A stretch of DNA of 64,000 nucleotides from Acidobacteriota bacterium (GCA_029263395.1 JAJCXO010000036.1:1638-65637); one strand, 5' to 3'. Shown: positions 1 through 34,010, numbered from the stretch's first letter. Notes: generated from the letters alone by a model not told the origin. A program made the numbers and translations.

Positions 1-491
1 GCCCCCCCGCCGTCGTAGGTCAGCACCACACGATCGGCCTCGGTGAGGTCAGTGAGTGCTCCTTGCATCAGCCGCCGATCCTCCGGAAGCTCGCCGGCTA
101 GCTCGACCTTCACCACCGTCGGCTCAGCGCCACTCTGAAGCCGCTGCAACCCCTGCTCCAGCTGATCGTCGGTTGGTAGCTCGTCGCCTTCGCGCAACTG
201 TCGATCCTTACGGCGCCAATGGGACGCCAAGCGTTGGCTGATGATGACGTTGAGCAGCGCCTGAAAACCGCCCTTCTCCGGATCGTCCTTCCAGCCTTTT
301 CGCAGCCGCCAGACCAGCTTCATCATCACGTCCTGGGCGACGTCCTGTGCCTCGTCAGGGTTCTTGAGCTTAGCCTCCGCGATCCTCACCACCTGCGGAT
401 AATAGGTGGCGACGAAGGTCTCCCAGTCGCCGCCCCGGCCGTCCAGCTGACCAAGCAGGGCAGGATCGGTTTTGCGCGTGCAGTGGCCCAT
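1..491 (-). CDS. ECF-type sigma-70 family sigma factor, N-terminal part (gene runs off the left edge)
   Basis: My own minus-strand translation from ATG 491-489 gives MGHCTRKTDPALLGQLDGRGGDWETFVATYYPQVVRIAEAKLKNPDEAQDVAQDVMMKLVWRLRKGW...FQALLNVIISQRLASHWRRKDRQ...LTEADRVVLTY. It shows region-2-like signatures and the beginning of a region-4-like signature. It is missing from the ORF track because no stop codon lies in the window. The ATG sits 3 nt after the TGA (495-497) of the upstream gene. Confidence 0.6.
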   Translation of the reverse strand, partial: MGHCTRKTDPALLGQLDGRGGDWETFVATYYPQVVRIAEAKLKNPDEAQDVAQDVMMKLVWRLRKGWKDDPEKGGFQALLNVIISQRLASHWRRKDRQLREGDELPTDDQLEQGLQRLQSGAEPTVVKVELAGELPEDRRLMQGALTDLTEADRVVLTYDGGG

Positions 492-494
492 GAT

Positions 495-1865
495 TCACCA
501 CTCGTCGGGCGAATAAGGCTGTGGAGCCTGCTCGAACCGAAACGGGCAGCACTTGGCAACCGTTGGATAGCTGGGTGGCAAGGGAGACGGAGCCTGGACA
601 ACCTGGTTGCCATCGGTCCGCGGGGCGGTGCCGGGCGCAGCTGCTGGAGGAGTCCTGCGGGCCTCCAGAACGTGCTCCTGCCACTTCCGACGCACGGATT
701 CCATCCGCTGCTCAGTGCTCTCGAATGGCACCGTCTGCCATAGCTGCGCCATAAACTTGTAGTCGTTCTGGGCGTAGGGGTCCATTCCGAGCTCTTGCTT
801 AATACGAAGGCTGATGTCTACCTCCTGCTGCGTCAGCCCCTCGACCCCGATGTCGGCATCGTAGCCGTGTGCGTAAAGCAGGAGCTTGAGCCTACCGGCC
901 GCGTCAGCCACGTCAGACACCTCAAGCTCCTGGCGATACCAGCGGACGAGTTCCTCGTCGGTGGTGACGTCGGTGACGATCCGCCACCACGGTACCCGGA
1001 AGTAGCGGCCGAGTAGATGGATGATGGCCAGCTCGCTGGCCATGCGCAGCGCCCGGCTCTTGCTCTGAATGCCGACGACCCGCGATCGGAACCCGAGGCC
1101 GCTGCCCTCGAAGAAGATGCCGAAAGCGTAGGACTTGTCACTGCGGGCGACGTTGACGCGGTAGCTTTCGGCTAGGCGGTCGATCGCCGTCATGCGATAG
1201 TTGTCGTAGATCTGAAGATCGATCGCCAGGGTGGTAAGCTCGATGTCTCGATCGGTGCCAAAGCCGAGGTCCAGCTCCTCGTCACGCTGGGCGGCAGTCA
1301 CCGAGCCGCCGGGACGGTTGGTGATCGTCTCGTTGCCGCTCTTTACTGGGATCAGCGCATCCATCTGCACGCCCCATCCCTTGCGCAACCGCGTCTCCCC
1401 CTCGGTGATACTGCCGCGAACGCTGAGAAGAGGCCGGCGCATCAGAGTCTGGTGGTCGAGCTGCCCCATTTCCATCAACCGTAAATCGGTCAGGACCTGC
1501 GTGCGATCCACAACCTCGATCGGGCGCCCGATCTTCGCCAGAATAGTGCGCAGGACTGGAGCCAAGTCGGTCGGCAAGCCGTCGGTGACGCCACTAGTAT
1601 TCAGGATCGGCGGAACCTCGATCGACACTGGATCGGTAAGCGCCCGCGGGTAGGCCCGCAGCATGGTGCCAAACTGAGCGACCGCGCCACCGAACCGGGT
1701 GAAGTTCTGCGCCGGCGGCGCCATTGATTCGTCCTGCTCGAGAATCACCGCGCCGGGCGTCGGCGTGGTCGCGCACGCCGACAACAGCGGCGCCACGGTG
1801 AGCGCAAAAAGGAGAAGAGCCGTGCACGTCGTAGCATCATTCCGTTTGGGAACGAGACGCTTCAT
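495..1865 (-). CDS. CsgG-like outer-membrane lipoprotein (curli-type secretion channel family) with a Pro-rich C-terminal extension
   Basis: This is ORF 495..2054. I place the start at the internal ATG 1865, giving MKRLVPKRNDATTCTALLLFALTVAPLLSAC, a signal peptide plus an L-S-A-C lipobox. CsgG-like blocks are present: LRTILAKIGRPIEVVDRTQVLTDL, LSVRGSITEGE, LTTLAIDLQIYD and RALRMASELAIIHLLGRYF. Confidence 0.6.
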   Translation of the reverse strand: MKRLVPKRNDATTCTALLLFALTVAPLLSACATTPTPGAVILEQDESMAPPAQNFTRFGGAVAQFGTMLRAYPRALTDPVSIEVPPILNTSGVTDGLPTDLAPVLRTILAKIGRPIEVVDRTQVLTDLRLMEMGQLDHQTLMRRPLLSVRGSITEGETRLRKGWGVQMDALIPVKSGNETITNRPGGSVTAAQRDEELDLGFGTDRDIELTTLAIDLQIYDNYRMTAIDRLAESYRVNVARSDKSYAFGIFFEGSGLGFRSRVVGIQSKSRALRMASELAIIHLLGRYFRVPWWRIVTDVTTDEELVRWYRQELEVSDVADAAGRLKLLLYAHGYDADIGVEGLTQQEVDISLRIKQELGMDPYAQNDYKFMAQLWQTVPFESTEQRMESVRRKWQEHVLEARRTPPAAAPGTAPRTDGNQVVQAPSPLPPSYPTVAKCCPFRFEQAPQPYSPDEW

Positions 1866-1881
1866 GATGACCGCCTCACTG

Positions 1882-2412
1882 TCAACGCCCGCCGGTAACG
1901 CCAGGAGAGGACGCGCCGTCGAGCAAGCGACGGGCATTGGCGCCGCCGCTGCCATGAATCCGCAGTGAGGCAAGCTCGACCACTGATTCGACCTCGATCG
2001 GACGACGCCGACGGCGCTCCTCCGGCAGCTTGAGGACGCCAATCTCGAGCTCACGCCCCTGGCGCCGGTCGACGCGTAAAGTTTGCGGTACGTGCGACAC
2101 CAACGCCAGCGAGACCTTGCGCACTCCGTCGGTGTCGGTAAGCGAGGGACTCAGCACTTGCGGGTTGCCGGTTCGCTGCGCGCCCTGTAGCTGAGAATCG
2201 TCGAGGTAGAGATAGAGCTCCCCGCTCGGGCTCACCCGGCCGCCAAAGTATCGGCCGCGATTCTTGATCAGCAGCTGCTCGTAGATGCCGGGGGCACGCG
2301 CCGAAGCAAGCCGAGAGGGTGCACCCAGTATTTGTGCGTCGAGCGACCGCGCCGGGACCAGCAGCCCAAGGACAATGATTGCGGCAAGAATTGAGCAGGT
2401 TGGGAGGTTCAT
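1882..2412 (-). CDS. secreted hypothetical protein (about 176 aa) in the CsgG-like operon
   Basis: This is ORF 1882..2646. The internal ATG at 2412 gives MNLPTCSILAAIIVLGLLVPARSLDAQ, a signal peptide. The gene ends 17 nt before the CsgG-like start. I recognise no family. Confidence 0.45.
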   Translation of the reverse strand: MNLPTCSILAAIIVLGLLVPARSLDAQILGAPSRLASARAPGIYEQLLIKNRGRYFGGRVSPSGELYLYLDDSQLQGAQRTGNPQVLSPSLTDTDGVRKVSLALVSHVPQTLRVDRRQGRELEIGVLKLPEERRRRRPIEVESVVELASLRIHGSGGANARRLLDGASSPGVTGGR

Positions 2413-2512
2413 GGTTCGCTTCCTTTGAAGTTGATGGACTGTTCCGCCGACGCTCTCGAAATGGAGTTCCGCCGGCCGTGTGCCAAAGGTACTCCCCGCC
2501 AGATAGTTCGGG

Positions 2513-3013
2513 TCATTCGACCCGAACCCCGCCAATTTGCACCGTGTGGTTCCGGCCCCAAACCGCAACTGCGCCGCTGAAACTAGTGCTGGCGGAAATG
2601 CTGCCGACCCTGGCCGAGTTAACTTGGAGACCACCAACTTGGGCATCTACGCCCCATCCGACGACGGCAACCGCGCCGCTCATCCGGGTGCGCTCACGCA
2701 ACGAACCGCCGGCACGGGCATCACTTAGCTTCACCCCTCCGACCTGGACGCCAACGTCGGTTCCAGCCGCCACGGCAACTCCGTTGAGGGCCGTGCGGCT
2801 TGCGACATCGCCGCCAGCCACCGAGTCGTCGAGGTGTACGCCGCCGACCTGCACACCGACATTGACGCCGGTCGCTAGCACTGCCCCGTTGACGGTCGCA
2901 CGGCTGGTGACGTCGCCGTCCACCCGGCTACCGGACAGTACCTGGGCGCCTGAGCTAACCGCTGAAACAGTGAGTATCGCGGCCAACGACATGGCCATCA
3001 GATCAGGTTTCAT
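2513..3013 (-). CDS. secreted tandem-repeat protein A (4 x ~35 aa, beta-solenoid/amyloid-subunit candidate)
   Basis: Signal peptide MKPDLMAMSLAAILTVSAVSSGAQ. Repeats follow, such as DVTSRATVNGAVLATGVNVGVQVGGVHLDDS and GDVASRTALNGVAVAAGTDVGVQVGGVKLSDA. A Shine-Dalgarno AAGGAGG lies 5 nt upstream of ATG 3013. It is a paralog of 3145..3654. Confidence 0.7.
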   Translation of the reverse strand: MKPDLMAMSLAAILTVSAVSSGAQVLSGSRVDGDVTSRATVNGAVLATGVNVGVQVGGVHLDDSVAGGDVASRTALNGVAVAAGTDVGVQVGGVKLSDARAGGSLRERTRMSGAVAVVGWGVDAQVGGLQVNSARVGSISASTSFSGAVAVWGRNHTVQIGGVRVE

Positions 3014-3144
3014 TAATGCCTCCTTGTTGTGATGCTCGGTTCGGCGGGTTGCACCGTGCCAGAGACCTCCTTACCCCAAAGGCAGGAGGTGGCACGACAA
3101 AGCGCCGTGCCACAGCTGACAGGATCGTCAGTCCGGTTTCCCGA

Positions 3145-3654
3145 TCAGTCCATCCAGACTCCACCTACCTGGGCTTCGACGTTGGTCCCGGCAGCTAGTA
3201 CGGCACCATTGACCTCGGTGCGGGAATCGATGTTGCCGGTTACCCGTGAATTCTTGATCCGCACCGAACCGACATGGGCGGTGACGTTGGTACCCGCGGC
3301 CAGAACCGCACCGTTCACGACAGTGCGCTCGGTGATGTCACCTTCCACCTGCGAGCCAACGATCCGTACGCCGCCAACCAGGGCTGCGACATTCTCGCCC
3401 GCGGCGAGCACCGCACCGTTGACCCGTACGTTGGAGTCGATGTCACCATCGACCTGAGAACTGCTGATTCGGATCCCGCCGACCTGAGCGAGCGCGTTGG
3501 TGCCTGCGGCTAGCACCGCACCGTTGACCTCGGTACGGGCGGTCAGGTCGCCCTCGACTCGGCTGCCGCCGCCGGACAGTACTTGCGCCTCGGCTCCGAT
3601 GGCTGCAGTCAGAAGGACTACGGCAAACATGAGAGTTCTAGTGCCTGTGTTCAT
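3145..3654 (-). CDS. secreted tandem-repeat protein B (4 x 35 aa, beta-solenoid/amyloid-subunit candidate)
   Basis: Signal peptide MNTGTRTLMFAVVLLTAAIGAEAQ. Four near-regular 35-aa units follow, of the form RVEGDLTARTEVNGAVLAAGTNALAQVGGIRISSS. A Shine-Dalgarno AAGGAG lies 6 nt upstream of ATG 3654. Confidence 0.7.
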   Translation of the reverse strand: MNTGTRTLMFAVVLLTAAIGAEAQVLSGGGSRVEGDLTARTEVNGAVLAAGTNALAQVGGIRISSSQVDGDIDSNVRVNGAVLAAGENVAALVGGVRIVGSQVEGDITERTVVNGAVLAAGTNVTAHVGSVRIKNSRVTGNIDSRTEVNGAVLAAGTNVEAQVGGVWMD

Positions 3655-3905
3655 TGGATTCTCCTTCCCATTCAGGTTTTATTTTCGGCGTCTCAGACGC
3701 CGTATTCATCGAGGTATACCCGCGGTCCCCAAAAAGCGTTACACCGGGGTCGAGACCAACCTCCTACCGATCGATACGACCGACCATGGACCGATCGCCC
3801 TGCCGACCGATAGTGCGGTGCAAGCCGGGTTGGTCGTCGCCGAATCCGCCGTGACGGTCAGCTCGACGTCGGAGAGACCCAGAAACCTCAGTGGTTGCCA
3901 CACCT

Positions 3906-5549
3906 CTAGCTCCCCGGGCGCGGCGTCCGGTCGTTCGCCCAAGCAGGACGATTCTGGCTTCTTGCCTCCTTCTTCGTAGCACCACCGAATCGATAGACCA
4001 TCGACAGACTGACGATGTCGGAACGTTCCGAGAGATCGAAGGCGAGATCGACCTGCACCTTTTTGCCAACGAAGCCCAGCCCTCCAGTGATATGAAGCTC
4101 ATCCTCGCCACGCGGGAACCGAAAGGCGAATCGATCCTCGATCTCACCGATGGCGTCAGGGTCCCTGCCTTCGAAATCGTAGTAGAGCTGATGATCCGGG
4201 TCGTACCAGAGTCCGAAACGCAAAGCGATCGGATTCTGGCGTACAAACACGTACTCGACCCCCAGATGGAATTCGTCGCCATCGTCAATCTTGAAGTTCT
4301 TGAGAAATCGGGAGATGCACGGAACACTGGACCTCAGCTCCGGAGGACTGGCCAGGGGAGTCGGATAGCGATCGCCATCGATGTTGTAATCTCCGCAGCT
4401 ACCCAATTGGAGATCATTCGCCGTGCCCGGCCTTGGTGCGCCTCGCGTTGCCGTGGTAATGACGTTCGCCGCTGGCGTGAGGCTGGAATACTCGACTCGA
4501 TCGTATTCGAATGACACCGTGAGTTTCTGCGTCGGCTTGACCATCCAGCCGACGCTGACGACATCTGGGACTGCAAACTGAGTCGTACCAGTGAGGTCCC
4601 TAACGACACCTGGGTCAGTGAGATTGGGGTTCGGTTGCCCAGCCGATTGGGCTCGTGCTTCGTTGAGCGGTCCCCAATTGAATCCGTAGTCGAAATCAAA
4701 CTCGGGAGCTTGGCGATAGACCAAGCCGAGCCCCCAGCGATCCGATTTGCCCTTCCAAATCAGGCCAACTGTAGCAGCAACGTCGCTATCGTCCCCTGTC
4801 TGTGTGGATCGCTCGGTTTCGTTCGCAGGAACCAACTCCACGGCAGTGGTGATGACTTCACTTACGCCATCAGAGCGAGCCGAGTTGTTGGTCGCATAAC
4901 GACGAGTCAGCGAATCGTAGTCGAAAGTGTAGTACGACAGCCCGATACCTAACCACAGATTCTCGGTCACGCTATAGGCTGCAGACGCACCGTAGTTCAC
5001 GATGTCTAGATCGAGCCGGCCACTAAGAGCGGACAAGCGGCTGCGGGATTGGGTCGGAGTGACACCCGCAGCCACCGGTTTACGGATAAACGATCCTTGG
5101 CTCTCGAGTTGAACCTCGAAAGCCGCCAGCTCGTGTCGATAAAGGGCAACCCTCCACTTCTCACCGAGCACATGAGCATAGGACAAGAAGGAGAGCCCAG
5201 AGACAGCACTTTCGAACTCCCTCAACTCGAGATCTGGATTGGTATCGATGCCGACATTGGTCGGTGTGAAGTTAGCGCTTCCCCCGAAGGGATACTTGGT
5301 CTTGTAGTTACGGTATCTGCCCTCGGTGGATACCTCGCTCTCGTAGATCCAGATCAGCCCCGCTGGGTTGGCGAACGCTGCGGTGGAATCGTCAGCCAGC
5401 CCCGTAAATGCCCCTCCCAGCGCGAGGCTTCGCGCTCCTGGTGGCGCGAAACTGAACTGGAGCCCAGCGTTAATCTCATCATTCGTCTGAGCGCTAGCGA
5501 TCGTCGACGTGATGAATATCACTGCACAAAATCTGACATATATAGGCAT
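3906..5549 (-). CDS. outer-membrane beta-barrel protein, FadL/OmpP1-like
   Basis: Signal peptide MPIYVRFCAVIFITSTIASAQT. The N-terminal block GARSLALGGAFTGLADDSTAAFANPAGL is typical of FadL-type barrels. The protein is Gly/Tyr/Asp-rich with an alternating-strand pattern. Confidence 0.6.
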   Translation of the reverse strand: MPIYVRFCAVIFITSTIASAQTNDEINAGLQFSFAPPGARSLALGGAFTGLADDSTAAFANPAGLIWIYESEVSTEGRYRNYKTKYPFGGSANFTPTNVGIDTNPDLELREFESAVSGLSFLSYAHVLGEKWRVALYRHELAAFEVQLESQGSFIRKPVAAGVTPTQSRSRLSALSGRLDLDIVNYGASAAYSVTENLWLGIGLSYYTFDYDSLTRRYATNNSARSDGVSEVITTAVELVPANETERSTQTGDDSDVAATVGLIWKGKSDRWGLGLVYRQAPEFDFDYGFNWGPLNEARAQSAGQPNPNLTDPGVVRDLTGTTQFAVPDVVSVGWMVKPTQKLTVSFEYDRVEYSSLTPAANVITTATRGAPRPGTANDLQLGSCGDYNIDGDRYPTPLASPPELRSSVPCISRFLKNFKIDDGDEFHLGVEYVFVRQNPIALRFGLWYDPDHQLYYDFEGRDPDAIGEIEDRFAFRFPRGEDELHITGGLGFVGKKVQVDLAFDLSERSDIVSLSMVYRFGGATKKEARSQNRPAWANDRTPRPGS

Positions 5550-5616
5550 TATCTGTGTCCTCTAGGAATTGGTCTGCTCTTGAGGGCATCGCGACATAAA
5601 CCGCATGCTCTCCTCA

Positions 5617-8460
5617 TTAAAACTCAGCTGGCACACTCATTTTCAGAGCTTTGAAGCCGACATCGCTCTCTCCAAAGCTGGGATCATCGAGAAAACCCCA
5701 TTGTGGATTGCTCCGCGGTGAACGCCCCATTTCCGCGACATAGCGCCCCAACTCACGTCCGAGAACCAGGCCGTCCAGGTTGGCGTCGGCGCTACCTCCG
5801 AGGCCAGCAACGACGGCAACTCGGAATGCGCTCTCGTCGGGGACCTCTTGTTGCTCATCGCCAGCAGTCAGGAAGAGACGAGCAGGACGGGAAAGCAGAT
5901 CATCTACCGAGGTGCCTTGAACCTTCTCGATCAAGCGAGCCTTGGCAGCGTTGAACACGGTTCCGGAAAAACAGCTGTCGAAAATGAAGACTACGTCTCT
6001 CGCACGGGCTTCGACCGCGTACTTCTTGAAGTCCTCCATGCTGACGAGAAACCTGAGGTGTTCGCTGCTTTGTCCGGGCGTCGGTGAATCGACAGGAACG
6101 ATATAGCCGAGACTTCGTCCCCAATTGGCTTCAGACCAGCCGTGGCCTGCGTAGTAGACGATCAAGCGGCTGTCGGGCTCAGTACCGCGCCCGGCGATAA
6201 AATCCTCTAGCCTGCTAGCTAGCTCCTTCTTCTTCGGGTTCCAGACAACCTCCACCTCAAAATCCTGGCGCTCGAGCACAGCCTGGACGCGCTTAATGTC
6301 ATCCTTCACTCCGGGTAGCTGCGCCCAGCCGTGCACGTAGTCAACGGCGCCGATCAGCAGGGCGAAACTGTTGGCGTAGATCTTTAGCCGGTCGTCGCGG
6401 GATAGCAGATTCTCGAAGGCGTTGAGAGTAGAGGGGCGGGCCCGGCCCCACCCACGGGCCAAGAGAAGGCTCTCTCTCGCCGCTGCCTTGTCACCACACT
6501 CAAGATAGACGCGGACCCGATGGAGGAACGGGGTGTAGGGCATGCCGAGGGCAGTCTCCAAAGCCTCGACGTTGGCGAGCGCTGCCGTCTCGCCCAGCGC
6601 CGCGTGTACTCGATCGATCTCGTCGATGACGCTCCGATCGCATCCTTCTCCAATCTCAGAGACTGTGGCCGTGTAAGTGGAAATCGCCCGCCTCTGCATC
6701 GCTTGCAGCGCATGCTCGTGGTCTGCGGTTTCGACGGCCTCCACCAGCGAGGCGATCGCTCGCTCCTGAAGATCATCTGTGGGAGTCGATCGCGCCTGCG
6801 CGATGTAGCGACGGCTCTCGTCGAGCTCGCCACACGCTAGGTAGCCGTGCGCTAGGGCAAGATACGGCCGAGCCTGCGAGAGTCCTTCGCTGGCGAGCGC
6901 ACCAAAGAACCCGTCGCCGACCATGGCCTCGAGCCTCAACAGCGGTGCTCGCTGGCAAGAGTCAGTTGTCAGTAGCTTCTCGATCTCCTCAAGGCGAGCC
7001 AGGAGCAGCCTGCGATGGCGTCGCTCCTCGGCCTCGAGCTTCTGCTGGACGGGAACCTCCTGCCAAGGGTCCTGCTCGGCGTCCAACTTTACCTCTTCAA
7101 GTCGCCGAGCCACTTGAGCGACCTGCTCCGGTAGATCGAGCCCCGCATGGCGGACCCTTGAAAGGGCTGCCTCCGCATCGTTGACCTGCTGGCAGGACAG
7201 TTCCGCGTTCGCAATCAGCAATCGAGGTGTGGGCAAGGGAAGCGGAGTACTGGCCTCGGGAGCTGACTCAAGCGAGGCCAAATCTTCCACCAGCTGTGGG
7301 TCACACGCTCCAGTCGCGACTCTTTCGCGGCCGAGCTCATAACGCTTGCTCCATTCCGCCCTGGCGACCGCCTTGCGGACCAATTCCTCGAGCGCCGGGA
7401 TCTCGCTCGCAACCGCCGCCTCACTGCGGGCCTCTTCGAGGTGGAGCCGGGCCTCTTCCAGCTCACCACAAGCCACGCTTACCTGCGTCAACCAGAAGTG
7501 GGGAGCCCTGCCAGAGGTCGCCAAGTCGATCGATAGGCGCTTCGCGCCGACCATAATCCGCTTGATTCTGGCGCCGGCGCTTGCAGGGCAGTCGGCCTCG
7601 GCTGCGATCTCGCCAGCGATTTCGTCTAGCTGGCCAAGAAGGTTATCGACAGACGCTCTTCGCGCCGCCTCAACTCGGCGTTCTTCTTCTCGCCGGGCGA
7701 GGTCTCGAATCGATTCGTGGGACGCCGCCAGCCGCTCCCATGCCGTTCGAACCATGACCTCAGCTTGGCCAGTATCGGTGGCCGCAACCCGATTCTTCTT
7801 TAACAGCTCGGCGGCGGCGGCGAGCCCCTCTTGGATCTCCGCCAGCTTGTCCCTATAGGAAGACGCCGACTCACCTGTAGCCAACTCACCTGTGATGCTG
7901 CTGACAGACGCTCGCTGGCGCTGCATCTCCCTACGAGCCTGCGCGACTTCAACAAGCAACCGTTCGGCCCGCTGAGGCAGCGCAAGATTCAGCTCGGATT
8001 TGAGCTCCTCAAGGGCCCTCCGCAAATTCCCGTTCTTTTTATGGTCGATCGCGCCCTGATCTTCGGACTCTTTCCATGCCTCCAGCGCAGCGTCATATCT
8101 TCCCAAATTATAAAGAGCCAAGCCTTGCTGGAAGTAAGGCAGGTAGGGTTCGAACCTCATACCGTAGGGTCGAATCATCTCGCCTTCCCTCGGCTGTTCT
8201 CTAGACGCAGCGGCAAAGAAAGCAAGTGCCTCTCGCCACTTAGAGAAGGCGGCGGAACGCAGGCCTTCCTTGTAGAGATCGACGTAATCCGCTTTGCCAA
8301 CCTGAGGGAAACAGACAAACAGGATCCAAAGCCAAACGGATCGTCGGTGGCCCCCCCCTACTACTCGGCATCGAGGACTGGCTGAGCCGAAATTGCCAGC
8401 GTGAGAATTTTGCATCGTGTTTGCAGGAGTTGCCTTGTTCAGGCATTTCTGGGTCGTCAA
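5617..8460 (-). CDS. exported TPR/helical-repeat protein with a C-terminal caspase-fold (peptidase C14) domain
   Basis: An N-terminal hydrophobic segment (VWLWILFVCFPQVGKA) is followed by TPR-like sequence (LALYNLGRYDAALEAWKES). The C-terminal ~270 aa carry FALLIGAVDY, the His motif LIVYYAGHGW and the Cys motif VVFIFDSCFSGTVF. The start may instead be the second Met, near 8415. Confidence 0.75.
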   Translation of the reverse strand: MTTQKCLNKATPANTMQNSHAGNFGSASPRCRVVGGGHRRSVWLWILFVCFPQVGKADYVDLYKEGLRSAAFSKWREALAFFAAASREQPREGEMIRPYGMRFEPYLPYFQQGLALYNLGRYDAALEAWKESEDQGAIDHKKNGNLRRALEELKSELNLALPQRAERLLVEVAQARREMQRQRASVSSITGELATGESASSYRDKLAEIQEGLAAAAELLKKNRVAATDTGQAEVMVRTAWERLAASHESIRDLARREEERRVEAARRASVDNLLGQLDEIAGEIAAEADCPASAGARIKRIMVGAKRLSIDLATSGRAPHFWLTQVSVACGELEEARLHLEEARSEAAVASEIPALEELVRKAVARAEWSKRYELGRERVATGACDPQLVEDLASLESAPEASTPLPLPTPRLLIANAELSCQQVNDAEAALSRVRHAGLDLPEQVAQVARRLEEVKLDAEQDPWQEVPVQQKLEAEERRHRRLLLARLEEIEKLLTTDSCQRAPLLRLEAMVGDGFFGALASEGLSQARPYLALAHGYLACGELDESRRYIAQARSTPTDDLQERAIASLVEAVETADHEHALQAMQRRAISTYTATVSEIGEGCDRSVIDEIDRVHAALGETAALANVEALETALGMPYTPFLHRVRVYLECGDKAAARESLLLARGWGRARPSTLNAFENLLSRDDRLKIYANSFALLIGAVDYVHGWAQLPGVKDDIKRVQAVLERQDFEVEVVWNPKKKELASRLEDFIAGRGTEPDSRLIVYYAGHGWSEANWGRSLGYIVPVDSPTPGQSSEHLRFLVSMEDFKKYAVEARARDVVFIFDSCFSGTVFNAAKARLIEKVQGTSVDDLLSRPARLFLTAGDEQQEVPDESAFRVAVVAGLGGSADANLDGLVLGRELGRYVAEMGRSPRSNPQWGFLDDPSFGESDVGFKALKMSVPAEF

Positions 8461-8776: not shown

Positions 8777-10381
8777 CTAAGAATCCAAGCTCAAGCCCAA
8801 AGCACTCATCCGCAATTTCAAGCCCCGCCGCGATACCCCGAGGATTTCGACCATCGCGTCGAGGGCCCCGCTCGCGCTCCGAATCGCGTCGACGATCTCG
8901 TCGCGGCTCAGGTCCGCGGCCTTGCGCACCTGCCGACTCTCGTCGATCCGCCGGTAGAGAGAGGAACGGGAGACGCCGAGAGAGGCGGCCGCGAGCGTGA
9001 TGTTCTGGCCGTGCTCGGAAAGCGCGGTGAGGAGCTCTTCCTCACCGATCTCAGTCACTGCGCGATAGCTCGTTTGCTCGGGCTTGGTAACCGCATCATC
9101 AGAGGAACCGCTGGGATCCCTCGATAAACTCAGTAGCCCCTCGATCGCGGGCGTCAGCTGCAACTCTTCCTGCTCCAGACTAGCGACCAGCAATCTGCGG
9201 GCGACGGCACGGAGTTGGCGCACGTTCCCGGGCCACGGGTAGCCAACCAGTCGGGCGACGATCTCAGCCGGCACGGCCGGCGCCTCGTACCTCGCTACTC
9301 CCCGTTGGGACTTGTTTGCCGAATCGAGCGCTTCTGAGAGGAAGTGGAAGAAGAGACGACCGATGTCGTCGCGCCGTTCACGGAGCGGCGGCAGCTTGAT
9401 CTCATACTCGGAGATCCGATGGAAGAGGGGTGCTCGGAACTCGTCGCTCTCGACGGCTCCTTCGAGATCGAGATCGGTCGCGGTGATCAAGCGGACGTCG
9501 ACGCTCACCTGCTCGGCAGCGCCGACCGGTTGGATCTGCCCGTTGTCGATCGCGCGCAGCAACTGAACCTGGACATCAGGCGCCGTCTCCCCAATCTCAT
9601 CAAGGAAGAGCGTGCCACCATCAGCTCTCTGGAAGTAGCCTCGACGTTGCTTGTCTGCACTCGTGAAAGCGCCTCGGGTCGCCCCGAACAGCTCCGACGC
9701 GGCAAGGTTGGAAGGGACAGCGGCGGCATTGACGCACACATAAGGCTGTCGACTTCTCGGCCCAGCCTGGTGCAGGGCGCGGGCTACCAACTCCTTGCCG
9801 GTCCCGGTCTCGCCACGCAGGAGGACCGTGAAGTCGAGCTCTGCCAGGCGCTCGATCTCCTGGCGCAAGCGGAGCATCGGGGAACTCTCGCCGATGAACC
9901 CGAAATCCCCGGGACGGCTGGTGAGGGGCAACAGCGAGTGCAGCAAAAGCGCGCTACTTTGCCCGAGCACGAGGACGACCCCACCCTCGAGATCGACCAA
10001 TGAAAACTCGCGGGAGCGCGTCAGGGAACGGCCGTCGACCTCGACGGCCGAGGCTGTGGCACTGAGGGAAGCGCGCACTCCACCGTCAGCTGTGGCGCTG
10101 AACTCGACCATCGGGCGGCGGCTGACGTAGGGATCGGCCAGGGGCCGCGGCGTGCCACCCGCCGGTTGCGCGAAATAGGGCTCTCCGCGCGACAGCGACT
10201 CACGCCCCCCAGCCACCAGCCCGGTGAGGGACGCGACCTCGCCGACGCGACGCGGATCCGGGTGACAGAGGACCGTCAGGCTGGGGACGCCGATACCGCC
10301 GATCCGGCTCCGGACGTTTGGCGCGGCACGCGTCGTGGCCTCTAGGTCGTCGCGCCAGGTTTGATCATCTTCAGGCATCAC
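8777..10381 (-). CDS. sigma-54-dependent transcriptional activator (bEBP) with an N-terminal FHA-like domain and C-terminal Fis-type HTH
   Basis: AAA+ motifs are present: LLRGETGTGKELVARALH, a GAFTSA loop (variant of GAFTGA), GGTLFLDEIG and RLITATDLDL. The N-terminus is FHA-like (ADPYVSRRPMVEF...VEVDGRSL). The C-terminus is HTH-like (ITLAAASLGVSRSSLYRRI and LGVSRRGLKLRMSALGL). Confidence 0.85.
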   Translation of the reverse strand: MMPEDDQTWRDDLEATTRAAPNVRSRIGGIGVPSLTVLCHPDPRRVGEVASLTGLVAGGRESLSRGEPYFAQPAGGTPRPLADPYVSRRPMVEFSATADGGVRASLSATASAVEVDGRSLTRSREFSLVDLEGGVVLVLGQSSALLLHSLLPLTSRPGDFGFIGESSPMLRLRQEIERLAELDFTVLLRGETGTGKELVARALHQAGPRSRQPYVCVNAAAVPSNLAASELFGATRGAFTSADKQRRGYFQRADGGTLFLDEIGETAPDVQVQLLRAIDNGQIQPVGAAEQVSVDVRLITATDLDLEGAVESDEFRAPLFHRISEYEIKLPPLRERRDDIGRLFFHFLSEALDSANKSQRGVARYEAPAVPAEIVARLVGYPWPGNVRQLRAVARRLLVASLEQEELQLTPAIEGLLSLSRDPSGSSDDAVTKPEQTSYRAVTEIGEEELLTALSEHGQNITLAAASLGVSRSSLYRRIDESRQVRKAADLSRDEIVDAIRSASGALDAMVEILGVSRRGLKLRMSALGLSLDS

Positions 10382-10617: not shown

Positions 10618-11835
10618 ATGCATGAAGCAAGCCCGAAGTGTGCCCACAAACTGCCCCTGATACTACTCTTTGCCCTTTGCTTCGTAGGTACCCTCGACGC
10701 GGACCCACCCCTCGACGCGGACCTTGACCTCGATTGCGCCGGTGCCATTTCCATCCCCTTGGGCGATCCGTATACCGATGAGCTCGGCGGTGACGGCCGG
10801 TCGACCTGCTATCGGCTGCAAGTCGACGCCTCGGGCGTCCTGCTTGCCTCCGTCGACTCCCACCCGGCGGCGACGAAGCTGCGCCTGCGCGACGATCTCA
10901 GTTCTGCCCGTGCCACCATCCTGCCCGGGACTGACCTCGGCCATCACCTCATCCTGCGGGTCCGCGAGCCCGGTTCCCTGGTCTTCGAGGTGGCTCCCCA
11001 GGACGCCCGGCAGGGCTTCGCAGGGCTCGTCTTTACCAACCGGTTCGTCGCCGAGGTGGACGCTGTCGAGCTGGATCTAAAGGATGCTAGGCCGCCGACC
11101 TTCACCAAGGAAGGCGACGAGATCGATCCAGTACTACTCACCATCCTCGATCCGCCGCTCACCTGCGTCACCAAGGAAGGCGACGAGATTGATCCAGTCC
11201 TGCTCATCGACCTCGCGCCGCCGGTCGTCTTTGAAACCAAGGAGGGTGACGAGATCGATCAAGTGCTGCTCACCGACCCCTCGCCGGCACCTTGCGTCGC
11301 CAAGGAAGACGACGAGTTTGATCCGGTTTTGTTCAGCGTGCGGCGAAGCGACCTAAACTTGCGGGCCGTACGCTCTGGTCTACTGCTGTTTGCCTCGGGA
11401 GGCGCCGCCCTCGTCCAGGCTGGCGACGAGTTCGTGCTGCGCGCGGAAACCGGAGACTCCAGGGTTCGCTTCTACGACGTCTGCGACTCCCATCCCACGG
11501 ATGACCACGCCGACTTCTTCGCCTGTGCCTCCCCGTTGGGAGCCAAGGGCAGCCTGCTCGGCGAGCTCGACGGCGGTTGGCCCTACGACTACGACGTCTT
11601 CACCTTCTGGCTCGGCGATCGACGGGCGGTGATCTTCGAAACCGGCGGCGAGGTCGCCACGGCCGGCGCCCTTTACGATCGACGAGGTCAACGACTCGCG
11701 CTCCCGGAGATCGCCGGCGACATTCCGTTCCGCTTCGTCCGCAACCTGGCCCCGGGGCGCTACTTCGTGCGCGTCTCTGGACGAGACGGAGCACCAGGCC
11801 GCTACACGGTGAGCTTCACGACGTCCGCCTGGTAG
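10618..11835 (+). CDS. secreted protein with two PPC-like beta-sandwich regions flanking four TKEGDEIDPVLL repeats
   Basis: Signal peptide KLPLILLFALCFVGTLDA. The four repeats are TKEGDEIDPVLLTILDPP, TKEGDEIDPVLLIDLAPP, TKEGDEIDQVLLTDPSP and AKEDDEFDPVLFS. The C-terminal end, YFVRVSGRDGAPGRYTVSFT, resembles a pre-peptidase C-terminal domain. Confidence 0.6.
   Translation: MHEASPKCAHKLPLILLFALCFVGTLDADPPLDADLDLDCAGAISIPLGDPYTDELGGDGRSTCYRLQVDASGVLLASVDSHPAATKLRLRDDLSSARATILPGTDLGHHLILRVREPGSLVFEVAPQDARQGFAGLVFTNRFVAEVDAVELDLKDARPPTFTKEGDEIDPVLLTILDPPLTCVTKEGDEIDPVLLIDLAPPVVFETKEGDEIDQVLLTDPSPAPCVAKEDDEFDPVLFSVRRSDLNLRAVRSGLLLFASGGAALVQAGDEFVLRAETGDSRVRFYDVCDSHPTDDHADFFACASPLGAKGSLLGELDGGWPYDYDVFTFWLGDRRAVIFETGGEVATAGALYDRRGQRLALPEIAGDIPFRFVRNLAPGRYFVRVSGRDGAPGRYTVSFTTSAW
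11098..11340 (+). repeat. in-frame tandem repeat, about 66 bp x 4 (22-aa units)
   Basis: ACCAAGGAAGGCGACGAGAT(C/T)GATCCAGT recurs at 11104, 11170 and 11236. A diverged copy lies at 11299. Confidence 0.85.
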
Positions 11836-11878: not shown

Positions 11879-14464
11879 CTAGCATCGTCCGCCTGGGGAC
11901 CTGGCCGCAACTGCAAGGTAGACTTCGCCGAGTTCCGGCTTGTCCCAGGACTCATAGAGCTCGACCAAACGGCACGCTGCGGCCCGAGTGTAGGGAGCGT
12001 TCTCGCCGCGAGCCTCGCGGATGACCTCGAAGCTGCGCTCGAGGGGCGCCTCGGCTTCGGCGTACCGTCCCATCCGCGCCAGGCTGGCGGCATGAACGCT
12101 CTCGGCGTCGGCCATGCGCCAGGACTCCGCTCTCTGGCTGGCGCGCAGCGTCGCGATGGCTTCGCTGGCCAGGGTTCGGGCGGCTTCTGGATCATCCTTC
12201 GCGATCAGGGTCACCGCCAGGTTGATCTTGGTCAGGGCTACCTCATAGTGACCGTCCTCCAACTGCTCACGGTAGATCGACAAGGCCTCCAAGTAGGCGC
12301 TCTCCGCCGCCTCGAGAGCTCCTCGGCCGTGGAGGATCTTGCCGAGGTTGTTGAGCACTACGGCGACGTTGCGATGCTCTGAGCCGTAGACCGCGCGGCG
12401 GATCCGCAGTGCCTGCCGCGCCTCGTCCTCAGCGAGCCCGAGTCGACCCTGAGCATAGAGCACGGTTGCCAACTGGTTGCGGCTATTGGCGACATTCTTG
12501 TGCATCGGCCCAACGGAAGCGAGGCGAATCTCGAGGCTCCGCCGGTAGACCTCCTCGGCCGCACCGTAGTCACCCTGCTCCAATAGCACGGTGGCCAGGT
12601 TGTTGCGTGCTAGAACGACGTCCGGATGCTCCTCACCGAGACTCCGAGTACGCATGTCCACAACCCGGCTGAACAGCGCCTGCGCCTCGGCGTACAACCC
12701 CCGATCGTAGGCGGTGATCGCCAGCGTATTGATACTCTCCGCGATCCCGCCAGCGTCCAGCCCGGAGCTCTTGGCGCGTATCCTGAGCGACTCGCGCAGG
12801 CGCTCCTCGGCCCTCTCGGTCTCGCCGGTGTGCTGGTCGAGAAAAGCAAGGTTGTGCAGGCTCTCGGCGACTAGGACATGGTCCTCACCGAGGTTCTCAA
12901 GCCGGACCTCGAGAGCGCGCTCGAGCAACGCTGACGCGCGCTCATAGCGGCCGAGGGCGGTGTATCCCCTCCCCAAGGAGTCCATCAGCAAGGCCTGATC
13001 GAGGGGGTGGTCAGCGAAGAGCGGATCGCTGACGATGCGGGCGGCTCGGTTCAGGGCCTCCTCAAGCTCGACCCGCTGGTCTGGAGTCGCCGGCTGCAGT
13101 GCCTTGAGCAGGCCAAGCAGCGATTCCGAAACTCGGCGCGACTGCTTGATCTCCTGTGCCTGATCCCACACCATGACGCCACCCTGAAAGACTAGGACGG
13201 CGGCAGCGGCTACCGGCAACCAATGACGACGGACGAACTTGCCAGCGCGATGCGCCAGCGTCGGCTTGCGGGCTTCGACTGGCATCCCGGTCAGATGCCG
13301 GCGAATGTCCGCCGCAAGCTGGTCGACCGACGCGAACCGGTCCTCGGGCCTGCGGGCCATGGCCTTCAGCACGATCGCGTCCAGGTCGCCGGCCAGCCGT
13401 CGACGGAGCCGGCGAGGGCTGCCGTCCCGGACACGGCTAATCTCCTCCGGAGTGAGGCGGGCGGCAACGCTCTCGGCGTTGCTTTCGACGCGCAGGACGG
13501 CGACGCTAGGCGCTTCAGGCTGCTGCCGCTCGATGACCGCTCGGATCGCTTCGAGCTCGCTACTCTCGAGCCGGTAGGGCAATCGACCGGTGAGCAGCTG
13601 GTACAGGAGGACGCCGAGCGAGTAGATGTCGGACGCGGTTGTCAGGGGCTGCCCGGCGAGCTGCTCGGGGCTGGAATAGAAGGGTGTCAGGCCGCTGGCG
13701 AGCGGCCGCGAGTCTTCCCCAACGGTGTCGAGGGACTCGCCGACTGCGCCGGACGACCGCTCGACGTCCAGCGGCTTGGCGATGCCGAAATCGAGCAGCT
13801 TGGGGATGCCTTCCCCGGTGACCAGGATATTGCCCGGCTTCAGATCCCGATGGACGACTCGCAGCTTTTGGTGGGCCAAGTGAACCGCCGAGCAAACCTG
13901 GAGGAAGAGCTCGAGGCGCTGGCGGGTGGTCAGCCGCTGCTCATCGCAGTACTCCCCGATGGGCTTGCCTTCGACGTACTCCATGACGAAGTACGGCCGG
14001 CCGTCAAGGGTGGTGCCGCCGTCATAGAGCTGGGCAACGTTGGGGTGCCGGATCCCGGCCAGAATCTGCTGCTCCTCCGCGAAGCGACGAACCGTGTCCG
14101 GGTGGAGAATCTCCGGCCGGATGAGCTTCAACGCGACCCGTCTCTTGAAGGGCTCTTCCTGATGCGCCAGGTACACGGTGCCCATCCCGCCCTCGCCGAG
14201 CTCCCTAGCGAGCCGGTAAGCCCCAATCCTGGGAACCAGCACACCGTCGTCGATGTTCTCGGAACCTAGAGGTACGAGTGGTTTCTCTAGAAAGTGGTCC
14301 AGTCGATCGTCGTACTCAAGGAAGGCCTGGACCTGATCGCAGAGATCCGGGTCGTCGCGGCGCGTCTCGTCCAGCAGCCCAGGCTTCTCAGCCGGCGGTA
14401 GGTCATCAAACCTGTCGAGCACGTCTTGGACCTGGCGCCAGCGCTCAGCGGTCAACGTCCCCAT
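11879..14464 (-). CDS. Ser/Thr protein kinase with a TM segment and C-terminal TPR array
   Basis: Kinase motifs are LGEGGMGTVYLA, VALKLI, HRDLKPGNILV, DFGIAK and SPEQ. A TM segment (WLPVAAAAVLVF) follows. The C-terminus has many TPR-type units such as NLAFLDQHTGETERAE. Confidence 0.9.
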   Translation of the reverse strand: MGTLTAERWRQVQDVLDRFDDLPPAEKPGLLDETRRDDPDLCDQVQAFLEYDDRLDHFLEKPLVPLGSENIDDGVLVPRIGAYRLARELGEGGMGTVYLAHQEEPFKRRVALKLIRPEILHPDTVRRFAEEQQILAGIRHPNVAQLYDGGTTLDGRPYFVMEYVEGKPIGEYCDEQRLTTRQRLELFLQVCSAVHLAHQKLRVVHRDLKPGNILVTGEGIPKLLDFGIAKPLDVERSSGAVGESLDTVGEDSRPLASGLTPFYSSPEQLAGQPLTTASDIYSLGVLLYQLLTGRLPYRLESSELEAIRAVIERQQPEAPSVAVLRVESNAESVAARLTPEEISRVRDGSPRRLRRRLAGDLDAIVLKAMARRPEDRFASVDQLAADIRRHLTGMPVEARKPTLAHRAGKFVRRHWLPVAAAAVLVFQGGVMVWDQAQEIKQSRRVSESLLGLLKALQPATPDQRVELEEALNRAARIVSDPLFADHPLDQALLMDSLGRGYTALGRYERASALLERALEVRLENLGEDHVLVAESLHNLAFLDQHTGETERAEERLRESLRIRAKSSGLDAGGIAESINTLAITAYDRGLYAEAQALFSRVVDMRTRSLGEEHPDVVLARNNLATVLLEQGDYGAAEEVYRRSLEIRLASVGPMHKNVANSRNQLATVLYAQGRLGLAEDEARQALRIRRAVYGSEHRNVAVVLNNLGKILHGRGALEAAESAYLEALSIYREQLEDGHYEVALTKINLAVTLIAKDDPEAARTLASEAIATLRASQRAESWRMADAESVHAASLARMGRYAEAEAPLERSFEVIREARGENAPYTRAAACRLVELYESWDKPELGEVYLAVAARSPGGRC

Positions 14465-15307: not shown

Positions 15308-15671
15308 GGATGGCTCCGACTGGCATCACTGAAGGGATGGCGATCATGCTCGCGGTAACAAAGATCCTGATGATATCCTCTGGACGTCACAGCGACAACA
15401 GAGGTCTATGGATGCGATAAAGCGCCAAGCGCTTTACGCAGAGTTGAAGTTGCGGGGCTTCGCCGCCAACTATGCAGCGGCGGCCTTGCATTCCTGTGTT
15501 TGCAGGTGCCGAGCAAGGCGCTCGAGCTAACCTGGTTATGGTTTAGGTAGGGAGAGACGGGCAGATTCAATGGTTCCTCGGTCTGCAGCTGTAGGCCATC
15601 CCAAGCGGCCTCGAGCTGGCCTGAATCTCACGCCGTCCTGAGGTCAGAAGGCAGGCGGGTGACCACATCCG

Positions 15672-15686
15672 TGGCATGAGCCTTGT
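15672..15686 (+). promoter_or_regulatory. possible sigma-54-like -24/-12 element with an imperfect -12
   Basis: TGGCATGAGCCTTGT has correct spacing, but the -12 element reads TTGT instead of TTGC. It lies 91 nt upstream of ATG 15777. Confidence 0.2.
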
Positions 15687-15706
15687 CCTCTTCCGAGCGG
15701 CTTTTC

Positions 15707-15728
15707 GCACGTCTTGAATTAGACGTGC
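15707..15728 (+). promoter_or_regulatory. perfect 8-bp inverted repeat in the leader of the giant gene
   Basis: GCACGTCT-TGAATT-AGACGTGC lies 49 nt upstream of the start codon. It could be an operator or a leader hairpin. Confidence 0.3.
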
Positions 15729-15776
15729 CGGAATCTTCGTCCGGTCAGTCCTGAGCAGCAAAGGGGTATCTGAACA

Positions 15777-28800: not shown

Positions 28801-29232
28801 TGCCGCGCGCCGGGGCGCCAGGGGCCCCTCTTTCAGGACCTCGGCCAGGCTGCGGCCCTCGACCAGTTCCATCACGATACAGTCCCGGCCTTCCTCGAGC
28901 AACACCTGGTAGGTCTGGACGATCGCCGGGTGGTTCAGGGCCGCTGCACTCCGCGCCTCTCGACGAAAGCGCTCTCTCGCATTGACGCTGGAAATCTCTC
29001 CGGCCTTGACGACCTTGATTGCCACCGGCCGATCGAGCCCTTCATCGTACGCGCGCCAGACCTCTCCCATGCCACCACGGCCGAGCCGGCCTTCGATACG
29101 GAAATCGCCGATGCGCTCGATGGGATCCGTGGCTTTCGCCAGCGCCTCGAAGGTGGATGCCTCAGGCTTCAGATCTTCCGAATCGACGCCCCCAGACGTC
29201 GATGTCGAGCGTTCTTCCATATATTTCACCAC
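25852..29232 (-). CDS. Ser/Thr protein kinase with a TM segment, periplasmic alpha/beta module and long TPR array
   Basis: Kinase motifs are LGRGGMGEVWRA, VAIKVV, HRDLKPGNVMM, DFGLAK and SPEQ. A TM segment (YVLVALTVALAVLAATAF) follows. The C-terminus has more than 10 TPR-like units such as IGDRAGIAYDTCRLGKIFAAQGDL. Confidence 0.9.
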   Translation of the reverse strand: MVKYMEERSTSTSGGVDSEDLKPEASTFEALAKATDPIERIGDFRIEGRLGRGGMGEVWRAYDEGLDRPVAIKVVKAGEISSVNARERFRREARSAAALNHPAIVQTYQVLLEEGRDCIVMELVEGRSLAEVLKEGPLAPRRAAAFFREVAEGLAAAHAKGIVHRDLKPGNVMMSDQGQAKILDFGLAKQADTLEAPLTTSGMIVGTPHTMSPEQAQGEKVDHRSDLFAFGAVLYQALTGEMPFAADSGVAILTKVCMYHPAPVAEVDPRISLELSDLVVRLLQKDPKNRPQSAAEVAAELSRLSIEDSTVRSPVRPRLDPPSRVAPNRRQYVLVALTVALAVLAATAFWRFGPVGTDQKSPASATAEVLRPPVMRPSVAVFGLEAVSKVPNDAWLAVAMAEMLVTELAAGDQIRVVGNGDSAHAGLELGVGDPAGMTAEDFVRLGRNLGVDFVVEGTFSDLGGQAASLLQLDLLLKSATSGETVATGRATGTPQRLFALIDRAAAGLRKELGAGPLKPAQALAVEASLPVAPNALRNYAEGLAKLREFDALAARDLLQAATSEEPEFPLAHAALAEAWLVLGYDDEARQVAGKARELAGGLSGTVRQRIEARFFATATEWDEAARIYGDLFAAFPDDIDLGFRLGEAQIKAGEPTGALVTLEQLRRLPEPWRLDPRIDIARSVALKRLGKFEQAQSAALAAVERAKVVQLPLVEARGRLEMAGAELGLGNNDRALDALQEARRIFSDAGDRLGYAKTLEAMAIAVRNRGQLAEARRHLENALAVYQELGTRGREASVSATLAAIHADEGRLEEAFEVFEQSLATLREIGDRSEEGRVLIAMGYTLSAQGELDDAILRYEEALSLFDGLSDKRGAAIATTNIAEILYARGELEEARRMHEDALAINREIGDRAGIAYDTCRLGKIFAAQGDLIAARRKFEEALAMQKDEPAAAAQTQLELAVLDLLMGKPKSAVDLAREAEEVLRTQQWNDAAVMAGAVLVRALVDSERTEEAARALARAEALTEKSADRRSQLVVGIAAANVWAASGRGSAAAVANLEQIAADAGEAGYLEEHFEARLAAGEIEMRVGRRASSMARLAGVESEARGHGYIQIADRAAAVGGPDGG

Positions 29233-33983: not shown

Positions 33984-34010
33984 GGGTTCTCGCGAGGTTT
34001 GAGGGGTGGA

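Follow-up and report, generated by a model that had tools for sequence, protein, structure and literature searches.

A conserved CsgG-superfamily cassette with candidate fibre subunits in an Acidobacteriota bacterium

Introduction

Two Gram-negative machineries for exporting the repeat subunits of extracellular fibres have been well described, curli and Fap. A group of genes at the start of a 64,000-nucleotide stretch of DNA from an Acidobacteriota bacterium (GCA_029263395.1, JAJCXO010000036.1:1638-65637; the whole stretch is called the window) raises the question of whether a channel of the CsgG superfamily may also serve subunits of another kind. An earlier note had described positions 1-8460 as a single same-strand operon containing a CsgG-like lipoprotein, a FadL-like barrel, a caspase-fold protease, a pair of repeat proteins, a small secreted protein and a terminal sigma factor of the extracytoplasmic function (ECF) type. 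The unit conserved across relatives is smaller than this seven-gene set, and consists of one or two repeat proteins, a small secreted accessory and a CsgG-like lipoprotein. We give roughly even chances to the reading that this core, made from non-curli parts, secretes and assembles its subunits in a curli-like (type VIII-like) way.

Results

A conserved trio of repeat protein, accessory and lipoprotein

All seven minus-strand open reading frames (ORFs) were found where the earlier note had placed them, with gaps of 3, 16, 100, 131, 251 and 67 nt, counted from the sigma factor end to the caspase end of the group. L001 to L095 are contigs or loci carrying homologues. The genes of the core are:

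3145..3654, minus strand: RepB, 169 amino acids (aa), secreted, four repeats of about 35 aa (ORF and repeat register)
2513..3013, minus strand: RepA, 166 aa, RepB paralogue with four repeats (ORF and alignment)
1882..2412, minus strand: p176, secreted accessory of 176 aa (ORF and alignment A6)
495..1865, minus strand: outer membrane (OM) lipoprotein of the CsgG superfamily, 456 aa (profile, Pfam matches of relatives, Foldseek)

The same-strand order repB and/or repA, p176, lipoprotein gene was present in the window, L001 (a contig of the metagenome-assembled genome (MAG) GCA_024226315.1), L002, L003, L007 (from MAG GCA_024449935.1) and L015. RepA orthologues were found in all five of these loci, and RepB orthologues, in the same position, in L002, L003, L007 and L015. 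The trio was also present in five of the five distant relatives looked up (29-41% identity):

L006, 41% identity: channel with an OmpA C-terminus; upstream, a repeat protein, then a small accessory
L008/L009, 31% identity: channel with a DUF4384 C-terminus; upstream, a repeat protein, then a small accessory
L010, 32% identity: channel with an OmpA C-terminus; upstream, a repeat protein, then a small accessory
L013/L014, about 29% identity: channel with an OmpA C-terminus; upstream, a repeat protein, then a small accessory
L011/L012, about 29% identity: two tandem channels; upstream, a 515-aa protein with about 14 repeats of the same type, then a small accessory

The number of repeats per repeat protein ranges from 4 to about 14 (L011), and this variability resembles that of fibre subunits. 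The partner proteins of the relatives match no Pfam or NCBIfam family and are called 'hypothetical' in their sources.

A second metagenome scan, with the family signature as query, yielded 160 relatives, for which 80 loci were kept, and the ORFs of all loci were searched with local hidden Markov models (HMMs) of the repeat proteins (alignment A7) and of the accessories (alignment A6). Fifty loci had at least 2 kb of upstream sequence; an A7-type repeat protein was found in 25 of them, a p176-like protein in 19, and one or both in 40, on the same strand and upstream. The best self-similarity period of the repeat matches was 34-39 aa or double that length. The first metagenome scan (alignment A1) gave no matches, the scan of genome contigs with alignment A3 gave nothing beyond one MAG already known, and in the literature nothing was found linking CsgG with DUF4384 or describing this cassette. 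The gene neighbourhood postulated by the earlier note is conserved, as a trio and not as a set of seven genes.

A subgroup of the surveyed loci (L018, L020, L021, L023, L026, L027, L030, L031, L034, L037 and L038) has two tandem CsgG-like genes, of about 525 and 455-530 aa, preceded by Asn/Ser/Thr-rich proteins of 287-345 aa which match the iterated p176 profile, whereas the repeat profile does not find them; they are possibly subunits that have fused or diverged.

Every product except the sigma factor carries a signal peptide or a lipobox in its translation, as the earlier note had observed: the signal peptides end in AEAQ (RepB), SGAQ (RepA), LDAQ (p176), ASAQ (barrel) and VGKA (caspase protein), and the lipobox L-S-A-C occupies residues 28-31 of the 495-1865 product, with Cys31 as the lipidation residue. 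The mature N-termini of RepB (~3580), RepA (~2940) and p176 (~2330) share A-Q-(V/I)-L-x(2-4)-S-R-(V/L) just past the predicted cleavage site. This shared start could be a common targeting or processing signal, and Arg-specific cleavage at S-R-(V/L) would suit an orthocaspase.

The lipoprotein as a divergent member of the CsgG superfamily

Only 7 close relatives of the lipoprotein were found among 5.8 billion proteins; an exhaustive profile search (E ≤ 1e-3) widens the family to at least 292 clusters, defined at 50% identity, and its metagenome loci number at least 160. Three lines of evidence, namely the family profile, the Pfam matches of relatives and the predicted fold, support the 495-1865 product as a divergent member of the CsgG superfamily without the constriction loop. 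The family profile A2 (89 sequences) aligned with Escherichia coli CsgG by hhalign (probability 93.6%, E 2.1e-7, 220 columns) over CsgG residues 4-255 of 277, both transmembrane hairpins included; this significant match was obtained solely with the 89-sequence profile, the seven-sequence profile giving 5% (not significant). PF03783 (CsgG) was matched by 10 of the 89 family members scanned (best E 2.2e-8). When the AlphaFold2 (AF2) model of the lipoprotein was searched with Foldseek, the top 19 PDB matches were all CsgG (best E 1e-6, probability 1.0), followed by the other CsgG-fold proteins HpaA, FlgT, LpoB, GNA1162 and PelC (HpaA, FlgT, LpoB and PelC within ranks 20-46).

The core of the protein is CsgG-like alpha/beta, and two amphipathic beta-hairpins with alternating hydrophobicity (about residues 160-210 and 246-264) align, at the level of sequence, with TM1 and TM2 of CsgG. 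All close homologues have Cys31, and in the family as a whole it is nearly invariant; Ala stands at +2. The core is followed by a family-specific helix LLGRYFRVPWWR (signature G-[KR]-Y-x2-[VLI]-P-Y-W-[RK]), a helical extension, a Pro-rich linker and, at the end of the protein, the motif YPTVAKCCPFRF. In the close clade the C-terminus reads YPTV(A/S)(K/E)CCPFRF (aa 433-444; window 534-569, minus strand) and was found in six of six full-length close homologues; the C-terminal motif contains an adjacent Cys pair. Many of the 89 family members have C-terminal DUF4384, TPR, PG_binding_1 or OmpA domains.

In L007 (2781-3536) the lipoprotein gene is cut to 251 aa with an aberrant tail and repB is duplicated; this may be a copy in decay or an artefact of assembly.

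The repeat proteins RepB and RepA

RepA and RepB are paralogues (42% identity) with four repeats of about 35 aa each, in keeping with the pair of repeat proteins recognised by the earlier note. The repeat consensus is S-R-V-x-G-D-h-x3-T-x-h-N-G-A-V-L-A-A-G-x-N-h-x-A-Q-V-G-G-V-x-h, with invariant Gly and Thr positions; Cys and Pro are absent from both proteins, and the last two repeats of RepA are more degenerate and Trp/Ser-rich. AF2, run on a three-row alignment, predicted an all-beta RepB with a predicted local distance difference test score (pLDDT) of 81 overall and above 90 in the repeats. Word-indexed protein searches with RepB and with a 13-sequence repeat alignment gave one match each (P0008), and were probably swamped by low-complexity candidates. 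RepB, whose gene is the first after the conserved promoter described below, is a candidate fibre subunit; RepA is a candidate second subunit, of a minor or nucleator type. The presence of two paralogues per locus is reminiscent of major and minor subunits.

Two families of small accessory proteins

In every case the p176 gene immediately precedes the CsgG-like gene (16-nt gap in the window), and its product is characterised by the motif Y-E-Q-L-L-I-K-N-R-G-R ... S-P-S-G-E-L-Y-L-Y-I-D-D. Alignment A6 brings together p176 proteins from 8 loci, down to 30% identity. The protein matches no Pfam or NCBIfam family, has no sequence similarity in the PDB, and gave hhalign probabilities of 1.8%, 0.2% and 0.1% against CsgE, CsgF and CsgC.

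A different small secreted family was found immediately upstream of the channel gene in 27 of the 39 loci with no p176-type match. Its members, of about 105-125 aa, have the motif D-L-D-D-G-I ... N-F-x-Y-L-x2-R-A-[KR]-S ... G-D-I-I-I-I-D-x-K-G-D-K-T and no Pfam match. A kinship of this family with p176 was considered and dropped (hhalign 0.5%, no detectable relation). Examples, within L016-L095, are:

L060, 5608-5928: small secreted accessory of the second family
L083, 5626-5958: small secreted accessory of the second family
L048, 2024-2359: small secreted accessory of the second family

Transcription signals and the sigma-FHA module

The elements of the window connected with transcription are:

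3713..3742, minus strand: promoter-like element GTAACG-N16-GGTATACC (exact match, conserved in relatives)
3686..3702, minus strand: stem-loop in the 5' untranslated region of repB, CGGCGTC-TGA-GACGCCG (alignment A9)
3089..3113, minus strand: 10-bp stem-loop in the repB-repA spacer (predicted free energy -18.3 kcal/mol)
3..491, minus strand: ECF-type sigma factor, N-terminal 163 aa (Sigma70_r2, TIGR02937)

The promoter-like element, which lies 59 nt upstream of repB, has the -35/-10 architecture of ECF promoters. Exact copies of GTAACG-N16-GGTA occur in the coding orientation ahead of repB (L002, L003 and L007) and ahead of p176 (L001 and L007); together with the window element this makes 6 instances in the right place and strand, whereas by our estimate from the pattern length a stretch of about 100 kb should contain about 0.2 exact matches. 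Five loci retain the leader stem-loop (predicted free energy -11.8 kcal/mol), one of its pairs showing a compensatory change from T-A to C-G, and it belongs to no Rfam family. Stable hairpins follow repB and repA, and hairpins of unrelated sequence lie in the repB-repA spacers of L001, L002, L003 and L007. Because repB has its own conserved ECF-type promoter-like element, the group does not look like one simple operon: in place of the single transcription unit of the earlier note, this motif precedes repB and stable hairpins follow both repeat genes. The signals fit an ECF-type promoter driving repB, attenuated read-through to repA, and a second unit of p176, channel and sigma factor genes.

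Other signals were looked for. The sigma-54 promoter pattern TGGCAC-N5-TTGC had 55 matches against 60 expected, none of which stands out; a sigma-54 activator (8777-10381) was considered as regulator of the cluster and set aside, no evidence being found for this role and a terminator-like hairpin lying between its gene and the caspase gene. Scans for generic sigma-70 promoters and terminators, and against Rfam, either gave nothing or did not exceed chance.

The partial sigma factor of the window matched Sigma70_r2 and TIGR02937 (44.4 bits, cut-off 42.9). Contig L015 is identical to window positions 1-3503 (0 mismatches) and runs 1676 nt past position 1; it contains the full gene (L015 3013-4041), for a 342-aa protein in which the ECF core is followed by an FHA domain at the C-terminus, and the end of this gene overlaps the start of a DUF4384 gene by 4 nt. 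The HMM matches bear out the earlier identification of an ECF factor, but not its terminal place, since L015 shows it to be a mid-module ECF-FHA fusion. FHA domains bind phosphothreonine, and ECF factors have sigma-2 and sigma-4 regions only. The same fusion was found in L001, L002 and L003 (the full-length L001 protein scored 63.3 bits with TIGR02937, over positions 3-165 of 165, and has the FHA domain), and in these three loci the order continues with genes for the sigma-FHA protein, a DUF4384 protein, an OmpA-DUF4384 protein and a Ser/Thr kinase anchored at its C-terminus. We infer that the sigma-FHA protein recognises the GTAACG-N16-GGTA promoter. The main text of the ECF reclassification paper leaves FHA fusions unmentioned and lists kinase-associated ECF groups (PMC7826278). 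The DUF4384 protein was also tried as a second CsgG-like paralogue and rejected (hhalign not significant).

The caspase-fold protein and the FadL-like barrel

The two remaining genes of the group are:

3906..5549, minus strand: FadL/Toluene_X-type OM barrel, 547 aa (PF03349)
5617..8460, minus strand: secreted caspase-fold (Peptidase_C14) protein, about 930-947 aa (PF00656)

Both of the folds proposed by the earlier note were found. The caspase protein matched PF00656 above cut-off (aa 699-838, E 3.7e-15, 56.7 bits, cut-off 21.4), with the catalytic dyad of His (YAGHG) and Cys (DSCFSG) intact in the window and in L001. Its N-terminal region of about 690 aa is helical and TPR-like, with a weak TPR signal near the N-terminus; its start is more likely the ATG at 8415 than the TTG at 8460; and its best NCBIfam match is the EACC1-associated caspase type (57, cut-off 140). 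The barrel exceeded the gathering score of PF03349 (Toluene_X; E 1.1e-12, 47.6 bits, cut-off 29.7, profile positions 131-296 of 421), and its N-terminal PorV/PorQ-like segment gave a sub-threshold match to NF033709 (PorV_fam; E 9.6e-7, 28.7, cut-off 90). The barrel ORF of the window runs 26 residues (3906-3983, minus strand) beyond ...V-Y-R-F, where the L001 orthologue stops. Since barrel assembly is usually signalled by a terminal aromatic residue, this tail may be either a real extension or a sequence difference.

In L001 both genes follow the kinase gene in reversed order, the barrel (65% identity) first and then the caspase protein (34% identity over 906 aa). Downstream of its kinase gene, L002 encodes another kind of caspase-like lipoprotein (15462-16856), which is regarded as a pseudo-protease paralogue because Ser replaces the catalytic Cys (F-D-S-S-F-S-D), and in L007 the downstream gene of CHAT type is on the opposite strand. 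The distant cassettes sit among unrelated genes, without caspase and barrel. Since they adjoin the cassette in the closest relatives only, the caspase and the barrel are lineage-specific companions and not core; the earlier note had counted them as parts of the set, a place which their restriction to these relatives and their varying position do not support.

Comparison with known systems

The system closest by mechanism is curli; by membership, only 'CsgG superfamily' holds, and for one component, in which the constriction, a defining feature, is absent. Shared with curli are an OM lipoprotein of that superfamily, two paralogous secreted repeat subunits (predicted all-beta here), a small secreted accessory gene beside the channel gene and a dedicated regulator in the locus. 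The window channel differs in having no Tyr-Asn-Phe constriction loop and about 190 extra C-terminal residues; the repeats are of 34-39 aa, whereas curlin repeats are of about 22 aa (S-x5-Q-x-G-x-G-N-x-A-x3-Q), and have no curlin similarity (PF07012); the accessory is unrelated to CsgE, CsgF and CsgC; and the regulator is an ECF-FHA sigma factor with a kinase, not CsgD.

The repeat length is of the same order as in Fap, FapC repeats being of roughly 35-40 aa. FapC is the top, non-significant, structural neighbour of the RepB model, and the window, like Fap, pairs subunits with a separate barrel and a cysteine peptidase. However, no product of the window matched the Fap families of Pfam or NCBIfam, the barrel is FadL/PorV-like and not FapF, the peptidase is C14 and not C39 (FapD), and the conservation of the cassette does not extend to barrel and peptidase. 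To our knowledge, Fap has no CsgG-like component.

PorU of type IX secretion is a clan-CD peptidase bound to PorV. The window places a FadL-type barrel of the 14-strand class with a PorV/PorQ-like N-terminus beside a secreted clan-CD peptidase, and the two genes are adjacent in the window and in L001. The PorV_fam score is nevertheless far below its cut-off, no other type IX component and no C-terminal domain (CTD) signal were seen, and the peptidase is a C14 enzyme with a helical N-terminal region of roughly 690 aa. By analogy, the likeness to PorU-PorV may be taken as a lead.

FlgT, LpoB, PelC and HpaA share the alpha/beta fold, and their association with the envelope or peptidoglycan resembles that of many relatives of the lipoprotein. 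They differ from the window lipoprotein, whose hairpins align with the transmembrane hairpins of CsgG; we know of no non-pore CsgG-fold protein among these four that has the two amphipathic hairpins.

Other genes of the window

Beyond the cluster, the window encodes a 405-aa secreted protein with four tandem segments of the T-K-E-G-D-E-I-D-P-V-L-L type and no Pfam or NCBIfam family (10618-11835, plus strand), and a giant protein of 3344 aa with LVIVD, Kelch beta-propeller, DUF11, DUF7507 and GEVED domains (15777-25811, plus strand). A non-ribosomal peptide synthetase cluster (32379-49026) contains an acyl-CoA ligase, an acyl-CoA dehydrogenase and two condensation-adenylation-thiolation (C-A-T) modules, one with a thioesterase, and a sulfotransferase gene (43091-44119) lies between the two modules; glycosyltransferase and polysaccharide-export genes are found downstream (about 49.3-55.4 kb). 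Long TPR regions make up the C-terminal part of two large Ser/Thr kinases (11879-14464 and 25852-29232, both minus strand); these kinases, together with the sigma-54 activator, point to a genome rich in eukaryote-like signalling.

Discussion

The reading of the trio as a curli-like cassette implies the following steps. RepB and RepA would be exported by Sec as unfolded chains, free of Cys and Pro and rich in Gly, Val, Ala and Asn, and would cross the OM by way of a channel that the CsgG-superfamily lipoprotein forms as an oligomer, with the assistance of p176 (CsgE/CsgF-like by position, not homologous). Since the constriction loop is missing, the pore may be wider or gated otherwise, perhaps by the accessory. 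Outside the cell each repeat of about 35 aa may form one rung of a beta-solenoid, and the subunits may stack into a fibre or a surface layer. In this lineage, the ECF-FHA sigma factor and the membrane-anchored Ser/Thr kinase would control the GTAACG-N16-GGTA promoter before repB, the apparatus would probably be linked to envelope and peptidoglycan by the DUF4384 membrane protein and the OmpA-DUF4384 protein, and the caspase and the FadL/PorV-like barrel may, by analogy with PorU-PorV or FapD-FapF, process or attach subunits.

Several results weigh against this reading. Scanned directly, the window lipoprotein had no match in Pfam (none at E ≤ 0.1 for PF03783), NCBIfam or the PDB sequences; because a direct HMM scan finds none, its CsgG likeness needs a family profile or a fold comparison. 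The CsgG-like lipoprotein of the earlier note thus holds as a superfamily member, by profile, relatives and Foldseek, but not by direct HMM match. Its AF2 model is of low confidence (pLDDT 46), with target-normalised template modelling (TM) scores to CsgG of 0.35-0.49. The constriction loop is missing family-wide (3-4 residues between N-x-T-G and L-P-x-D, versus about 13 in E. coli), and CsgG-like translocators have been described as requiring it, with its stacked Phe clamp and hydrogen-bond donor (Tyr51/Asn55/Phe56; PMC4594475). RepB and RepA match no Pfam, NCBIfam or PDB-sequence family, curlin and Fap families included, and the repeat profile gave hhalign probabilities below 1% against E. 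coli CsgA and CsgB. The RepB model has no significant structural match in the PDB: the top one is the FapC amyloid (E 0.027, TM 0.15-0.17), followed, also below significance, by assorted beta-solenoids, bactofilin and the CsgA fibril. AF2 is known for confident yet unrealistic solenoids on repeat sequences (PMC11795689), and because of this overprediction the solenoid fold of RepB is treated as hypothetical. Neither partner family was found in 10 of the 50 surveyed loci. Finally, Foldseek also returned FlgT, HpaA, LpoB, GNA1162 and PelC, and several CsgG-fold proteins are not pores. The idea of the earlier note, of repeat-fibre candidates around a CsgG-like channel, stands, because the lipoprotein is kin to CsgG, the gene neighbourhood is conserved and the repeat proteins, as its check for a characterised non-fibre family turned out, match no known family.

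The main rival is a periplasmic role for the lipoprotein, as a ring or scaffold linked to peptidoglycan in the manner of FlgT, LpoB and PelC, with the repeat proteins staying periplasmic or at the inner leaflet, as an envelope scaffold or as a sensor platform for the kinase and the FHA sigma factor. The absent loop, the Foldseek matches to FlgT, HpaA, LpoB, GNA1162 and PelC, the C-terminal OmpA, PG_binding_1, TPR and DUF4384 domains of relatives, the FlgT_N-like and DUF4384 neighbours of L011 and the tight coupling of the cassette to envelope signalling genes would all suit such a scaffold. We consider it unlikely, however: the CsgG alignment spans both amphipathic transmembrane hairpins, CsgG is by far the best structural match, and Cys/Pro-free subunits, variable repeat numbers and paralogue pairs resemble secreted fibre subunits.

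Export through a CsgG-type channel, the reading preferred here, has also to be set against two further explanations. The intact-dyad caspase adjoining the cassette, its best NCBIfam match to the EACC1-associated type (far below the cut-off), the caspase or CHAT genes that recur near the L001, L002 and L007 cassettes and an ATPase_2/TGS STAND-like gene near that of L010 could indicate a conflict or programmed-death system around the caspase, Ser/Thr kinases, FHA and TPR proteins, with the repeat and CsgG-like proteins as effectors or envelope accessories. Such a system is improbable, because all parts, the caspase included, carry export signals and because the caspase is not conserved with the cassette, caspase and barrel being absent from the distant cassettes in unrelated contexts; the L002 gene, moreover, has lost the catalytic Cys, and the NCBIfam score is 57 with a cut-off of 140. 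That the genes are chance neighbours, or share an envelope theme with no dedicated machinery, is very improbable indeed. The position and order of caspase and barrel do differ between the window and L001, and repB does have a promoter-like element of its own, but the trio persists as identity falls from about 70% to about 25-30%, in genomic contexts that are unrelated, gaps of 3 and 16 nt and a 4-nt overlap (sigma-FHA/DUF4384) join genes of the module, and the repeat family is otherwise extremely rare (one match per word-indexed search).

What is new is a CsgG-based cassette with new subunit and accessory families, apparently unannotated and widespread in uncultured bacteria. A broader proposal, which we hold more tentatively and at somewhat less than even chances, is that the clade forms an undescribed and widespread type VIII-like branch of uncultured bacteria, whose channels would have no constriction loop, the G-[KR]-Y-x2-[VLI]-P-Y-W-[RK] helix and peptidoglycan-binding, DUF4384 or TPR C-termini, and whose substrates would be new fibre subunits with 34-39-aa repeats, served by accessories of their own. 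In the lineage of the window this branch would be controlled by a phospho-relay from Ser/Thr kinase to FHA-ECF sigma factor and completed by PorU/PorV-like caspase-barrel finishing.

If these proposals are right, the CsgG channel would be a general platform for fibre export and not a curli-specific part, and a new repeat family would join the candidate functional amyloids or beta-solenoid materials. A CsgG-type pore lacking the usual constriction would be relevant to nanopore engineering, and the sigma-FHA protein would be a natural ECF sigma factor fused to a phosphothreonine reader and encoded beside a kinase. Hundreds of metagenome lipoproteins now called 'hypothetical' would thereby acquire a function.

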